Under the pieces are notes generated by a model, which saw only the letters and a program-made list of their open reading frames with translations, was not told where the DNA came from and did no database searches. A stretch of 63,391 bases of DNA, filler included, from Nitrospinae bacterium RIFCSPLOWO2_12_FULL_45_22 (GTDB taxonomy: Bacteria; 2-12-FULL-45-22): the NCBI GenBank assembly GCA_001803565.1. It is 5 parts of 5 records of this genome, joined end to end, with 100 filler letters (N's around TTAATTAATTAA, not from the genome) between each part and the next. Parts side by side here need not be neighbours in the genome. Positions count along the whole stretch, not along the records: positions 44,013 to 57,596 come from MHDQ01000004.1; 4 more parts are not named here. One strand, written 5' to 3'. A program made the position numbers and the translations under genes. Positions 47,124 through 57,596 of the stretch are shown here, piece after piece; position 1 is the stretch's first letter, and every line of letters begins with the position of its first letter.

Positions 47124-47825
47124 TTAAACTGATCCCGATAATTCAAACTGATCCCGCTTGATCTCCTCAGGTTTGATACCCATTATCTTAGAATCTTGAG
47201 ATACAAATTTATCGAGTAATTTGGTTATCTCGCAATAAAAACTTGAGTTACTATTTACATTCACCTGCTCCTGAAAGGCCCTTGTCCATTGCCCCAAGTG
47301 ATCTTGGAGAAATTTCCTTTGGGCTTCCCTACAGACCTTTAAATTCCTATGGTCTCCATTCTTCAGGGCAAATGCCTCCTTAAATGTCAAGAAATGCATA
47401 AATTCCAGTTCGACGGTTATATGATCAACTCTATCTTTGTTACCATCAGCTACTTGTAAACCAAAGGCCTTATAGAAGCCAGCTATGTCGGCAAGGTTTC
47501 CAGTATTCATAAAGAGCGGCCCTCGGGCTAGGTAGCTGAGTTCATAGGGTGAACACTTAGGCTCCTGATCCTGGCCGAATAAATCAAGATATTCAGAAAT
47601 GATAGTGGGGAAAATATTGTCCCCGTATCCTTTTATCGAGGTATTCAATAATTGTATATGTCCTTTTATTATATGATAGCTGGGTAATTTTTTGGCGTTT
47701 TCAGTGAGTTGAGAGATAAATAAAGCACCCGATAGGCATGCCTTAAGCTCTTCTCCTGGGTAACCAAGAACCGTAGAAAACATTTTGTATATCTGGCTGC
47801 GGGCTAATGGTGTCTCTTCCTTCAT
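47124..47825 (-). CDS. TorD/DmsD-family molybdoenzyme chaperone (module 2)
   Basis: ARSQIY, PYE, LADIAGFYKAFG, DHITVELEFM, FLQDHLGQW. Confidence 0.9.
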   Translation of the reverse strand: MKEETPLARSQIYKMFSTVLGYPGEELKACLSGALFISQLTENAKKLPSYHIIKGHIQLLNTSIKGYGDNIFPTIISEYLDLFGQDQEPKCSPYELSYLARGPLFMNTGNLADIAGFYKAFGLQVADGNKDRVDHITVELEFMHFLTFKEAFALKNGDHRNLKVCREAQRKFLQDHLGQWTRAFQEQVNVNSNSSFYCEITKLLDKFVSQDSKIMGIKPEEIKRDQFELSGSV

Positions 47826-47828
47826 GGT

Positions 47829-48653
47829 CTACTTAGTATCCTCTATTTTCACATCTACCCAATCTATTGACACCGATTTCTCCCCATCTCTGTTCTTATC
47901 CGCACCGTCCCATACCGAGAAGTTTATCTTGGAATCCATCCCCGGTTTAAACTGAGTGTCTAATTGGTCATTAGTCACCAAGGGTCTGACGAATGCAGCC
48001 CTCCATTTGCCTTTTTCGTAAACCCCTTTACCAGCAACGTCTTGCTGTTTCTGCCTTTCTAATGTGCCAAAGCCCTGGGCAACTAAATCTTCCACAGGAG
48101 AGTCTTTTATAAGTCTGCCTCCTTTGATCTCCTTTAGGAATACTTGCTTATCCTGGGGGAAGTAGTATCCCGGGTAGGGAGGATATTTGGTATCTAGGTA
48201 TTCGGTGCCATCATCAAGGTCCCCTTGCCAATCGGCACGCCAGAACCAGATGTTTACTAAGCCAGGACCACCCATGAAGGGGTCTGTCTCCTCTTTCAGG
48301 TTTATTGGAAACTGTAAGGCAGCTCCATCGGTAAAGGCATTTCCAGTCACCTTTGTATCCCTGGTTGAATCAGCCCATTCGATGAGAAAGCCAATAGACT
48401 TGCCATTGTGCAGCCCTCTAACCTCAATAGGCAGATGCTTACCACCAAAAGGCTCAGTGATTTCTTGGTCAGTAAGTTCGATAATAATGGGCGTCGCATC
48501 ATTCCAAACATCAGCGAACGGATCAGTTGCAATATCCTTCTGAGTGTATGCAATTTTTAGGATAGAAGAGTCTTGCGAATATCCTATTGGTACCAGTACC
48601 AAAGCCAAAAAAAATAGCGGTAACAGAACTATTGTTATCCGAACATATCTCAT
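47829..48653 (-). CDS. nxrC: Heme b gamma subunit of type II DMSO reductase family (NxrC/EbdC-like, module 2)
   Basis: Signal peptide, FTDGAALQFP, PFMG, VNIWFWRAD, AQGFGTL, FSVWDG...RDGEK; ATG 48653 after GAGGAGG. Confidence 0.8.
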   Translation of the reverse strand: MRYVRITIVLLPLFFLALVLVPIGYSQDSSILKIAYTQKDIATDPFADVWNDATPIIIELTDQEITEPFGGKHLPIEVRGLHNGKSIGFLIEWADSTRDTKVTGNAFTDGAALQFPINLKEETDPFMGGPGLVNIWFWRADWQGDLDDGTEYLDTKYPPYPGYYFPQDKQVFLKEIKGGRLIKDSPVEDLVAQGFGTLERQKQQDVAGKGVYEKGKWRAAFVRPLVTNDQLDTQFKPGMDSKINFSVWDGADKNRDGEKSVSIDWVDVKIEDTK

Positions 48654-48666
48654 TTTACAACCTCCT

Positions 48667-49800
48667 CTATGTAACATCCAACCTATAAACGTCCAGCCTC
48701 TTATCGTAGTGAGGTCTCACCACTGTGGGTTCTTTTATTGGAACCCTGGTAATCTCGTTCCCCTTCCTGTCATAACCAATTGCCTGGCCATTCTGTATCT
48801 TGAAAGACCCTATAAGCTTCTCGGTACTGCCTGTTAAGAGCAGCGCACCGATCAACTTCTCGTCCTCTTTGGCATTCTTATATGTCTCTACCGCCTTCTT
48901 TGCCCCGGGCCCAAAGATCTGGGTAAGATAATCTAAGGGGACTTGCTTTGGTGGGATGTAATATATGTTGGGCTCGGTGCCAAATTGGGGATACGATGGC
49001 AGAGCTACCTTCTTGATGTGGACAAGGAAATCCAGAGGATTTGCTGGGTCTGCCTTTTCCGGTGTATTTAAAAAACCTTGCATCCTTATCTTACCTATGC
49101 ACATCTCAAAGCACTGACTTATTAGGCCCTGCTCAATCTTGGGATAACATCCTATGCACTTCTCACTGACCCTTGTGTTCACTCTGTACATAGTCTTTTT
49201 ATAGGGGCAACCCTTAAGGCACTTCCTATAGCCCCGGCAGCGCTTCTGGTCGATAAGGACTACCCCATCTTCCTTCCGCTTATAAATGGCCTTTCTGGGA
49301 CAGGCAGCCAGGCACCCCGGATAGGTACAGTGATTACATGTTCTGGGAAGATAGAAAAACCAAACTGGGTGAGGTAAATAATTTATGTACATACCCTGTG
49401 AGACAGGGCCCCCTGCTATCTCATCCTCCCCAATATTGGGATATGACCAGTCTTCATCCTCTGGGGTAAATCCCACCATCTTCTCTCCGGCTTGCTTGGC
49501 CTCAAATATCGTCTTGCCCTGGTAAACACCATTGCCCCACTCTTGGGTCTCAAGCATCTCAAGGAGCTTCACGTCCCATCCTAAGGGATAATACCCATAG
49601 GGCTTGGTCTCTACATTGTTCCAGAACATATACTCTTGACCTCTGCCGGTGGTCCAGGTGGTCTTGCATGCCAACGAGCAGGTCTGACATCCTATGCACT
49701 TGTTTATATCGAATACGCCAGCCCACTGTCGGTTTGATCTTGACTCTCCATAGGGAAACTCCATCTCCCTGCTTAATTGCCAGTTGTTAACCTTGGCCAA
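48667..49800 (-). CDS. nxrB: NXR/NAR-like Fe-S beta subunit (module 2)
   Basis: [53 protein letters not shown]; probable TTG start at 49800. Confidence 0.88.
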   Translation of the reverse strand: [377 protein letters not shown]

Positions 49801-57032: not shown

Positions 57033-57072
57033 CCTCTTACCCTCCTTTTTTAAATAATAACCTTGTGTAGTT

Positions 57073-57280
57073 GTAACCGTTCACCCGGCTAAGCTTTATC
57101 AGCCACTAAGACACAAAGGCACCAAGAGATGAAATCATTTATCCGGTGTATGACGTACGCTGCATCCCCTATGCAGAGCAAGCTCTGCCACTACAGCCTA
57201 CAAAAAAGTTTGTAGTGGTCGAGCTTGCTCGACTCCTTCCATACCTTGGTGACTTAGGGCCTTGGTGGCTGAACGGTTAC
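57073..57280. mobile_element. MITE with 11-bp TIRs and 8-bp target-site duplication, carrying a nested GTAG REP pair
   Basis: GTAACCGTTCA/TGAACGGTTAC; GTGTAGTT at both 57065-57072 and 57281-57288. Confidence 0.88.
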
Positions 57281-57287
57281 GTGTAGT

Positions 57288-57596
57288 TTATGCCTTTTTT
57301 ATCTCGATCAGGTTACCAGCGAGGTATTTTTTCATAAACTCGCTCTCATTACCTGGCGAGAATCCAGTAGTAGCTGGTGCCCATATCCCGCGGCCTCCCA
57401 GCCCACCATCCTCTGCCTTAGTAATCTTCACCAAGGTTTCTTTGGGAACCGTATTAACCGCATGATTATCTGCCTCTCCTCCGAACATAAACCCCATAAA
57501 AACCTTGGTCTTATGGAAAAGAGTATCAGTCTGGTGCATGGGCATATGCCAGTTACGGGTAATGGATTGCTGTGAACCATAACGGAAGCTGGCTTG
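57288..57596 (-). CDS. nxrA: C-terminal fragment of anammox/Nitrospira-type NXR alpha subunit (module 1; remainder beyond contig end)
   Basis: [29 protein letters not shown]...[27 protein letters not shown]. Confidence 0.88.
   Translation of the reverse strand, partial: [102 protein letters not shown]

Follow-up and report, generated by a model that had tools for sequence, protein, structure and literature searches.

Two anciently diverged periplasmic nitrite/nitrate oxidoreductase modules in tandem in a Nitrospinae genome, and a direct repeat suggestive of block insertion

Gene content of the two-module contig

The DNA analysed in the current work (the window, 63,391 nucleotides (nt) in full) was derived from the assembly GCA_001803565.1 of Nitrospinae bacterium RIFCSPLOWO2_12_FULL_45_22 and consists of five contigs joined by N44-TTAATTAATTAA-N44 linkers (at 20356-20455, 33773-33872, 43913-44012 and 57597-57696); adjacency in the window of genes flanking a linker is not equivalent to adjacency in the genome. 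One of these contigs (44013-57596, 13.6 kb) carries in tandem two gene modules for periplasmic enzymes of the nitrite oxidoreductase (NXR) or nitrate reductase (NAR) type, every gene of the contig being located on the minus strand. In the direction of transcription, nxrA1 (represented by its 3' part), nxrB1, chaperone gene 1 and alt-nxrC constitute module 1, and are followed by nxrA2, nxrB2, nxrC2 and chaperone gene 2, constituting module 2, and then by genes for a Rieske protein, a cytochrome b6-type protein and a cytochrome b C-terminal/subunit IV-like protein (Table 1). Runs of N within contigs (26 N at 44431 and 20 N at 56999) represent scaffold gaps or masked stretches.

A first-pass annotation of this DNA had described two alpha, two beta, two gamma-type and two TorD-type genes on one strand. 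All eight were recovered, on the minus strand, and every protein motif quoted in that annotation is present in the translations. Pfam and NCBIfam searches returned molybdopterin, 4Fe-4S, EB_dh and Nitrate_red_del families across the seven NXR genes that are long enough to be scored, the 102 amino acid (aa) alpha-1 fragment being without a family match in either collection. The product of the first gamma-type gene is in fact a 526-aa fusion of a dihaem cytochrome c with a haem-b domain. Three features described below were additional to the annotation, namely a 97-nt direct repeat, a 20-N gap at the 5' end of nxrB1, and the Rieske/cytochrome b genes located downstream (44420-47011).

Table 1 Features of the two-module contig, in order of transcription (positions are those of the window)
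Feature	Position	Strand	Evidence or remark
nxrA1, final 102 codons, Nitrospira/anammox-type alpha	57288..57596	-	Open frame up to the linker at 57597, cut by contig end
nxrA1-nxrB1 spacer, 255 nt, AAGGAGG ahead of the nxrB1 ATG	57033..57287	-	Sequence read
nxrB1, subunit with four Fe-S clusters, 20-N scaffold gap at 56999-57018	55736..57032	-	Pfam, NCBIfam, P0121, Kuenenia NxrB match
TorD/NarJ-type chaperone 1	54979..55722	-	PF02613 3.4e-19; TIGR03482 95 bits, under its cut-off
alt-NxrC-type gamma, 526 aa: signal peptide, dihaem cytochrome c and EB_dh haem-b domain	53384..54964	-	Pfam Cytochrom_C (two matches) and EB_dh
97-nt repeat, copy a: last 29 codons of alt-nxrC, stop and 6 nt	53378..53474	-	96/97 identical to copy b
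90-nt leader, repeat copy a to nxrA2 start; upstream end of putative inserted block	53288..53377	-	No promoter- or terminator-like site found in scan
nxrA2, complete, 1161 aa, twin-arginine signal, Nitrotoga/periplasmic-NAR-type clade	49802..53287	-	Pfam, NCBIfam, Kuenenia NXR-A alignment, alpha tree
nxrB2, Fe-S subunit without the 8-residue insertion	48667..49830	-	Pfam, NCBIfam, alignments, beta tree
nxrC2, haem-b gamma (EB_dh), N-terminal hydrophobic signal or anchor	47829..48677	-	PF09459 2.5e-26; Kuenenia NXR-C match 1e-34
TorD/NarJ-type chaperone 2	47124..47825	-	PF02613 1.4e-22; 34% identical to chaperone 1
97-nt repeat, copy b: orphan alt-nxrC 3' end	47013..47109	-	14 nt after torD2 stop; ends 1 nt before Rieske ATG
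Rieske 2Fe-2S protein	46484..47011	-	PF00355 5e-11; PetC and Rieske NCBIfam models under their cut-offs
Cytochrome b6-type, N-terminal half of cytochrome b	45508..46281	-	PF00033 7e-44; NF040969 271 bits versus cut-off 290
Cytochrome b C-terminal/subunit IV-like membrane protein, 26-N gap at 44431-44456	44420..45271	-	PF00032 5e-7; NF040970 62 bits

Divergence and classification of the two modules

Corresponding proteins of the two modules are identical at 193 of 409 positions for the beta subunits (47%), 48 of 99 for the alpha-1 fragment and the C-terminus of alpha 2 (48%), 84 of 270 for the haem-b gamma domains (31%) and 74 of 216 for the chaperones (34%). The closest full-length relative of the alpha-1 fragment, a protein designated P0241 (94% identical over the 102 residues), is 40% identical to alpha 2 over 1177 positions. 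Among solved structures the Kuenenia stuttgartiensis NXR (PDB 7b04) represents the best match for all subunits, though unequally, the module 1 type being much closer to it than module 2: beta 1 (residues 2-423) aligns to Kuenenia NxrB with 624 bits as compared to 415 bits for beta 2, and P0241 aligns to Kuenenia NXR-A with 1895 bits as compared to 940 bits for residues 6-1156 of alpha 2. Far lower scores were obtained with perchlorate reductase, ethylbenzene dehydrogenase and NarGH (alpha approximately 140-215 bits, beta 175-210 bits). An 8-residue insertion is present in beta 1 as well as in Kuenenia NxrB, and opposite it beta 2 has a gap, a trait that beta 2 has in common with Nitrotoga NxrB, in which the insertion near the last cluster motif is reported to be missing (Kitzinger 2018, after Lucker 2010).

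For the phylogenetic analysis, related loci were taken from a scan of genome contigs, of which the best 80 of 599 stretches were used (loci with L numbers below; the set is without the window's own contig and without the relatives that are 76-82% identical to alpha 2). [quoted passage not shown] The remaining rows comprise alpha 2, nine of its 120 listed relatives, 13 of the 120 listed relatives of the alpha-1 fragment, five full-length representatives of 50% clusters, and 37 of the 64 full-length locus alphas, hand-picked for taxonomic spread. P0241 served as a stand-in for the alpha-1 fragment, which with 102 residues is too short for inclusion. The 65-row ingroup (support 100) contains two sister clades: clade I (15 rows, support 100) holds P0241 together with rows from Rokubacteria, Binatia, Acidobacteria, Planctomycetota and Limnocylindrales, and clade II (47 rows, support 100) holds alpha 2. 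Less well supported (85 and 94) are the positions of locus L080 (Bacillota) and of a pair from SAR202, which branch close to where these clades begin. In BLAST-aligned rows, the identity of the alpha-1 fragment is 54-94% with the alphas of clade I (15 rows) and 34-53% with those of clade II (49 rows), these values being derived from 102 residues only.

Closest to alpha 2 in this tree are two proteins that are 82% and 76% identical to it, next to which are placed Sumerlaeia, Inmirania, a Spirochaetaceae metagenome-assembled genome (MAG), Candidatus (Ca.) Magnetominusculus and Ca. Magnetobacterium, the nearest named relatives (Magnetominusculus, Inmirania and Nitrospirae MAGs) being 66-67% identical. 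The same 47-row clade also includes a Ca. Methanoperedens locus (L070), a Nitrospira MAG, a Brocadiia MAG and a Nitrospinota MAG. The beta tree (IQ-TREE, quick mode, 59 rows) was composed of the two betas of the window, 19 of the 120 listed relatives of beta 1 and 38 of the 78 locus betas. Rather than sharing one shallow clade, beta 2 falls within a clade of 37 rows (support 99) and beta 1 within a clade of 20 rows (support 99), including rows named Nitrospinota and Nitrospinaceae; since the 19 companions of beta 1 were chosen as its own best matches, this latter grouping is in part one of construction, and the tree is informative for the long supported branch and not for membership. Alpha 2 and beta 2 have identical nearest neighbours (L010, L012 and L023).

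Judged from these alignments and trees, the two modules are anciently diverged and occupy separate deep clades in both the alpha tree (with P0241 in place of alpha 1) and the beta tree, in agreement with the earlier view that they are not recent paralogues. Module 1 is accordingly classified by its bit scores and beta insertion as an NXR of the Nitrospira/Nitrospina/anammox type, as had been proposed, and module 2 is classified by tree placement as a member of the sister clade of putative periplasmic nitrate reductases. For module 2 the proposed clade placement stands, and the name of Nitrotoga that had been attached to it is a label from the literature, the trees having been built without a Nitrotoga sequence. 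According to Kitzinger 2018, the Nitrotoga NXR belongs to a "sister clade" of the Nitrospira, Nitrospina and anammox enzymes, in which the periplasmic NAR characterised from Hydrogenobacter is found as well, together with putative nitrate reductases from a wide range of bacteria and archaea. Two periplasmic versions are likewise recognised by Microflora Danica (665 and 581 sequences in 97,227 genomes), and Suarez et al. (2023, PMC10732223) assign the nitrate reductases of Methanoperedens and Thermogutta to this large periplasmic group as well.

With regard to module 1, a protein search retrieved no full-length protein identical to the alpha-1 fragment, P0241 being the best match, and a tblastn search with P0241 located no other alpha fragment in the window. 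The 20-N gap is positioned in codon 5 of nxrB1 with the same five bases (GTTTA) on both sides, and the gap region is 25 nt in excess of the real gene when judged from P0121, a 423-aa protein that is 99.8% identical to beta 1 (one mismatch), reads through the gap and supplies the N-terminus. Because P0121 reads through the gap and the same bases flank it, the adjacency of nxrA1 and nxrB1 was accepted, with the caveat of the gap. The first-pass annotation had considered that nxrA1 might prove to be a pseudogene replaced by module 2; in this reading module 1 would be a decaying remnant with a truly truncated nxrA1, for which module 2 is the functional replacement. In favour of such a remnant are the presence in the window of only the final 102 codons of nxrA1 and a best full-length match of 94%; yet the truncation coincides exactly with the contig linker, the gene being interrupted by a break of the assembly and showing no visible decay, while nxrB1, chaperone gene 1 and alt-nxrC are intact frames with all ligands kept, and near-identical nxr copies of nitrite oxidisers are known to break assemblies (Lucker 2013; Kop 2024). 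We therefore regard decay of module 1 as very improbable indeed.

The 526-aa product of alt-nxrC has a signal peptide, carries two CxxCH sites and ends in an EB_dh domain; its residues 36-251 match a Kuenenia dihaem cytochrome chain (PDB 6h5l_B, 7e-61) and its residues 301-523 match Kuenenia NXR-C (1e-33), the Met and Lys haem ligands being aligned with Met155 and Lys305 of the latter. Of the 30 nearest clusters of the ESM Atlas, 28 have this architecture, with Nitrospinota as the most frequent source. It fits the definition (CxxCH sites plus a DMSO-reductase-type haem-b domain) of "alt_NxrC", a cytochrome c/haem-b protein with one to three CxxCH sites described in Nitrospina and listed among the genes conserved with Nitrospira and Kuenenia (Lucker 2013). 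In the loci of the nearest named relatives among the 80, i.e. Ca. Magnetobacterium cryptolimnobacter (L010, 5605-6450) and a Nitrospirae MAG (L012, 367-1173), a separate dihaem cytochrome c gene is situated directly ahead of the alpha 2-type gene, and its product is 41-44% identical to residues 45-249 of the fusion. We considered whether read-through between a module 1 gamma and such a cytochrome had given rise to the 526-aa protein, and rejected this origin, the domain order being reversed and the architecture being widespread and already described.

Alpha 2 possesses a twin-arginine signal (SRRQFL, residues 7-12), and its CTPNDTHNC and WHTD motifs align with those Kuenenia NXR-A motifs that hold Asn70, Asp71 and Asp275, which represent the substrate-binding residue, a cluster ligand and the molybdenum ligand, respectively (Chicano 2021). 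The 3Cys/1Asp ligand set of the first cluster is thus retained in alpha 2, as are the substrate Asn and the Mo-ligand Asp. None of the 15 cysteines that belong to the four beta-subunit clusters differs between beta 1 and beta 2, and the Met and Lys haem-b ligands of NxrC2 are aligned with those of Kuenenia NXR-C, so that the cofactor ligands checked (in alpha 2, both betas and both gammas) are kept in both modules. A cytoplasmic NarGHI or Nitrobacter-type NXR was rejected as an identity, given the twin-arginine signal on alpha 2, gammas of the EB_dh and not the NarI kind, and narG and narH scores far under their cut-offs (166 versus 1084 bits for narG, and 181 versus 524 bits for narH).

It is conceivable that module 2 encodes a type II DMSO-reductase-family enzyme for another oxyanion or substrate, acquired by a nitrite oxidiser for a side metabolism. 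Alpha 2 stays under every curated NCBIfam cut-off by a wide margin (e.g. 360 versus 985 bits for TIGR03479), clade II is for the most part made up of uncharacterised enzymes (Kitzinger 2018; Kop 2024), and pNxr-like enzymes are known beside chlorite dismutase genes (Barnum and Coates 2022). The alignment of the substrate Asn, the Mo-ligand Asp and the cluster motif with Kuenenia NXR-A, a score of 940 bits to NXR as compared to 214 bits to perchlorate reductase, and the inclusion in clade II of the Methanoperedens nitrate reductase gene set (L070; Arshad 2015) argue for a nitrite/nitrate enzyme and make another substrate quite improbable.

The 97-nt repeat and the position of module 2

The two modules are accompanied by a direct repeat of 97 nt (53378-53474 and 47013-47109), the copies of which are identical at 96 of 97 positions, including an exact stretch of 94 nt; within the window, a 59-nt segment of the repeat is matched twice, with no match expected by chance. 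In copy b the stop codon of the orphan alt-nxrC fragment is positioned 7 nt before the Rieske ATG, and a GGAGG is formed by the last two alt-nxrC codons. Considering that copy b ends one base ahead of that ATG, this alt-nxrC-derived GGAGG serves as the ribosome-binding site of the Rieske gene. The 6268 bp between the copies (53377-47110) are made up of the 90-nt leader, nxrA2, nxrB2, nxrC2 and chaperone gene 2, and no integrase or transposase gene was found in this block.

This arrangement suggests that module 2 (6.3 kb) represents a recent block insertion into an operon in which NXR genes were followed by those for the Rieske/cytochrome b complex. In the simplest reading, alt-nxrC would have been located directly before the Rieske gene in the ancestral order, and the module 2 block would have been inserted between the two with duplication of 97 nt at the downstream border, either by single-crossover integration of a circle carrying the 97 nt or by loss of most of a second alt-nxrC copy, both being candidate mechanisms. 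The near identity of the repeat copies, set against 31-48% protein identity between the modules, indicates that the juxtaposition is recent and the divergence of the enzymes ancient. Base composition was considered as a sign of foreign origin or chimerism and was discarded, there being no difference between the modules: GC content is 0.467 for module 1 and 0.465 for module 2, and their tetranucleotide correlation (r = 0.84) is within the range obtained for either module versus three of the four other contigs. In view of this lack of a foreign signature, the source of the block may be another site in this genome or a close relative.

Among the 80 related loci, 78 consist of single clade II-type modules and two (L061 and L080) are intermediate, the hosts being distributed over many bacterial phyla as well as archaea. 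A second alpha or beta of either clade was found in none of the 80. More specifically, a second module was found in none of the 48 loci with at least 7.2 kb upstream of the beta gene and in none of the 47 with at least 8.6 kb downstream of it, these flanks being sufficient to reveal the arrangement found here; split frames (L030 and L074) and distant 4Fe-4S proteins (L068 and L075) were left out of the count of second modules.

This lack of comparable tandems counts in favour of a rival explanation, in which the arrangement was produced by assembly or reflects just one state of a mixed population; alt-nxrC would then directly precede the Rieske gene in the cell, and module 2 would reside at another place or form an excised or amplified unit with the 97 nt at its borders. 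The exact part of the repeat (94 nt) is close to the length that short reads cannot bridge, and the same contig is broken in nxrA1 and gapped in nxrB1, indicating that assembly was troubled by repeats in this region. The near-identical proteins P0001 and P0121, encoded on contigs of 16627 and 17049 nt, are uninformative in this respect and lend no support to the linkage. Both junctions of module 2 are nevertheless situated in gap-free sequence, and the contig could not exist without reads linking torD2 with the repeat and the latter with the nxrA2 leader, so that module 2 is bounded by alt-nxrC 3' sequence regardless of how the contig was assembled. Furthermore, the modules are equal in composition, and to our knowledge neither 94 nor 97 nt is a usual k-mer overlap length. 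On balance, an artefactual or alternating tandem seems unlikely.

Several loci in the set concern the wider distribution of module 2-type operons. Such operons are carried by Nitrospira sp. (L050), Ca. Brocadiia (L038) and Nitrospinota (L044) MAGs, and in the first two of these Rieske/cytochrome b genes are located upstream of the clade II operon. Archaeal clade II loci (L062, L070, L073, L075 and L079) belong to Methanoperedens, Methanomassiliicoccales, Euryarchaeota and Geothermarchaeota, and those placed in the trees nest among bacterial modules for alpha as well as beta, which points to cross-domain transfer of whole modules. Agreement between the alpha and beta trees on groups that cross phyla or domains (e.g. 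Methanoperedens with Planctomycetota and Omnitrophota) fits with such whole-module transfer.

Predicted roles of the two enzymes and weighing of the evidence

Both modules are on one strand, alt-nxrC and nxrA2 are separated by 96 nt, a scan for promoters and terminators yielded none in the intergenic gaps on the gene strand, and an Rfam scan detected no riboswitch or other RNA within the cluster. It is plausible from this layout that both modules belong to one operon. Both enzymes would be made and active, each alpha-beta pair being exported by the twin-arginine system and bound to a haem-b gamma subunit. The predicted electron path connects the molybdenum site by way of five Fe-S clusters with haem b and from there with c-type haems, the first partner presumably being the dihaem domain fused to the module 1 gamma. 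The Rieske/cytochrome b complex may connect the cytochromes with the quinone pool, running forward for nitrate reduction and in reverse for nitrite oxidation. A forward route of this kind, from quinol via Rieske/cytochrome b and cytochrome c to a periplasmic Nar, forms part of the Methanoperedens model (Arshad 2015), and a reverse route through a cytochrome b complex has been proposed for nitrite oxidisers and anammox bacteria (Lucker 2013, among other sources).

The two enzymes could be isoenzymes that differ in preferred direction or affinity, the first-pass annotation having suggested direction, affinity or substrate as possible lines along which their labour is divided. Since clade I contains proven nitrite oxidisers, and clade II contains proven nitrate reducers together with Nitrotoga, the likeliest split on phylogenetic grounds would have module 1 operating towards nitrite oxidation and module 2 towards nitrate reduction.

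We assign a probability of roughly 0.7 to the reading that the region is one co-directional cluster encoding two complete, anciently diverged periplasmic NXR/NAR enzymes, of which module 2 arrived as an inserted block at the site that separates alt-nxrC from the Rieske gene. A number of points weigh against this reading or parts of it. As to the sequence itself, nxrA1 is visible as 102 codons only, its N-terminal 90% (with signal and active site) lying beyond the contig end; the nxrA1 piece is linked to nxrB1 solely across the 20-N scaffold gap; and the integration of module 2 is read from the assembly alone, a mixed population, or a mis-join by way of the 94 exactly repeated nt, being conceivable. 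As to the trees, FastTree issued a warning about long branches that meet at the root of the alpha tree, the beta 1 companions were selected as described above, and canonical Nitrospira, Nitrospina, Nitrotoga or Hydrogenobacter sequences were not among the rows. As to function and retention, no promoter or terminator signal decides on co-transcription; the occurrence of the tandem in 0 of 80 loci provides no comparative support for its retention by selection; and a Rieske/cytochrome b pair adjoins the module in five of the 80 loci, so that the complex encoded here could equally serve module 2. Finally, both clades have enzymes that run either way, so that direction is not readable from the clade: the Kuenenia NXR works both ways in vitro (Chicano 2021), and sequence alone cannot separate a nitrite oxidiser from a nitrate reducer in the two periplasmic clades (Kop 2024; Kitzinger 2018).

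A more far-reaching proposal, which we consider rather improbable, is that recombination moves entire periplasmic NXR/NAR modules as cassettes, one of the Nitrotoga/periplasmic NAR (pNAR) type having recently landed in an operon of the Nitrospira/anammox type, with a single transcript for two isoenzymes that share alt-NxrC and the cytochrome b complex, and with 97-nt repeats that make the cassette excisable or amplifiable. If true, the organism might switch or cycle between nitrite oxidation and nitrate respiration from one regulatory unit. For the favoured reading of a block-inserted module 2, the representation of both clades by an enzyme in a single cell, probably behind a shared promoter, would offer a natural comparison of direction, affinity and redox partners. 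The insertion scar would constitute direct evidence, beyond tree incongruence, for movement of a four-gene NXR/NAR block as a unit, and such a movable block bears on the spread of nitrite oxidation among phyla.

Comparison with known systems shows that both enzyme types are known, and that the tandem arrangement and the insertion scar are new. Module 1 resembles the Kuenenia NXR and its Nitrospira/Nitrospina/anammox clade in the bit scores and the beta insertion noted above, and its TorD-like chaperone and alt_NxrC are part of the gene set conserved in Nitrospira, Nitrospina and Kuenenia (Lucker 2013). It differs from Kuenenia/Nitrospira-type NXR in that a plain haem-b NxrC gene is absent after nxrB1, the fused form being the only one, and in its order (A-B-chaperone-altC), in an operon that would have run on into Rieske/cytochrome b genes, and in an alpha that is incomplete in the window. 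Module 2 shares with the Nitrotoga fabula NXR, the Hydrogenobacter thermophilus pNAR and the Methanoperedens NarGH a twin-arginine alpha, a beta without insertion, a soluble EB_dh gamma and a NarJ/TorD chaperone in an A-B-C-D block, and with the Methanoperedens locus L070 its alpha clade. Unlike loci of that type, it is placed inside the operon of another enzyme, such modules standing alone in all 80 related loci.

Suarez et al. (2023, PMC10732223) have also reported two phylogenetically distinct nitrite/nitrate oxidoreductases per organism, in Ca. Nitrocaldera robusta and in MAGs of Planctomycetota that have both Nxr-type and Nar-type genes. In each of those pairs one enzyme is of a cytoplasmic Nar type, and the two are apparently not adjacent in the account given there, whereas here both are periplasmic, adjacent and accompanied by a putative insertion scar. 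The haloarchaeal/Methanoperedens model likewise includes a Rieske/cytochrome b complex encoded beside a periplasmic NarGH-like enzyme (Arshad 2015), although the repeat suggests that the Rieske gene was here first joined to the clade I operon and not to module 2. No description of a tandem of the two periplasmic clades, or of the insertion scar, was found in open-access literature; co-occurrence may be touched upon in trees and tables that supplement Kitzinger 2018, Kop 2024 and Microflora Danica.

Additional observations were made downstream of module 2 and on the other contigs. After the cytochrome b genes, a further gene start (44013-44192, minus strand) comprises 60 codons with one hydrophobic helix before being cut by the contig end, and may specify another subunit of the cytochrome b complex. 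A 45-nt AT-rich element occurs as exact copies (45419-45463 and 46413-46457) in both long spacers between the Rieske/cytochrome b genes; an inverted partner (88%) is located 91 nt away, at 45306-45337, and the window contains no additional copy. The element may be a small intergenic repeat or a regulatory hairpin. The other contigs of the window contain menaquinone (futalosine-type) genes, lipid A genes and multihaem cytochromes. A row of UbiD-like, UbiA-like and radical-SAM CofH/MqnC-like genes (127-3516) suggests menaquinone synthesis by the futalosine route. A borderline int-alpA RNA, the sole Rfam match at gathering score (36.6 versus 35.8 bits), is located near a contig end (32972-33045). 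A separate contig carries three multihaem cytochromes with doubled CxxCH motifs (274, 440 and 571 aa; 38957-43815) beside an NHL-repeat beta-propeller protein. The last contig, the GC content of which is lower (0.406) and the tetranucleotide usage of which is the least similar, contains at 57992-60225 an unassigned 165-aa gene followed by a UPF0175-family gene, which possibly form a toxin-antitoxin pair, and in addition a DDE transposase.

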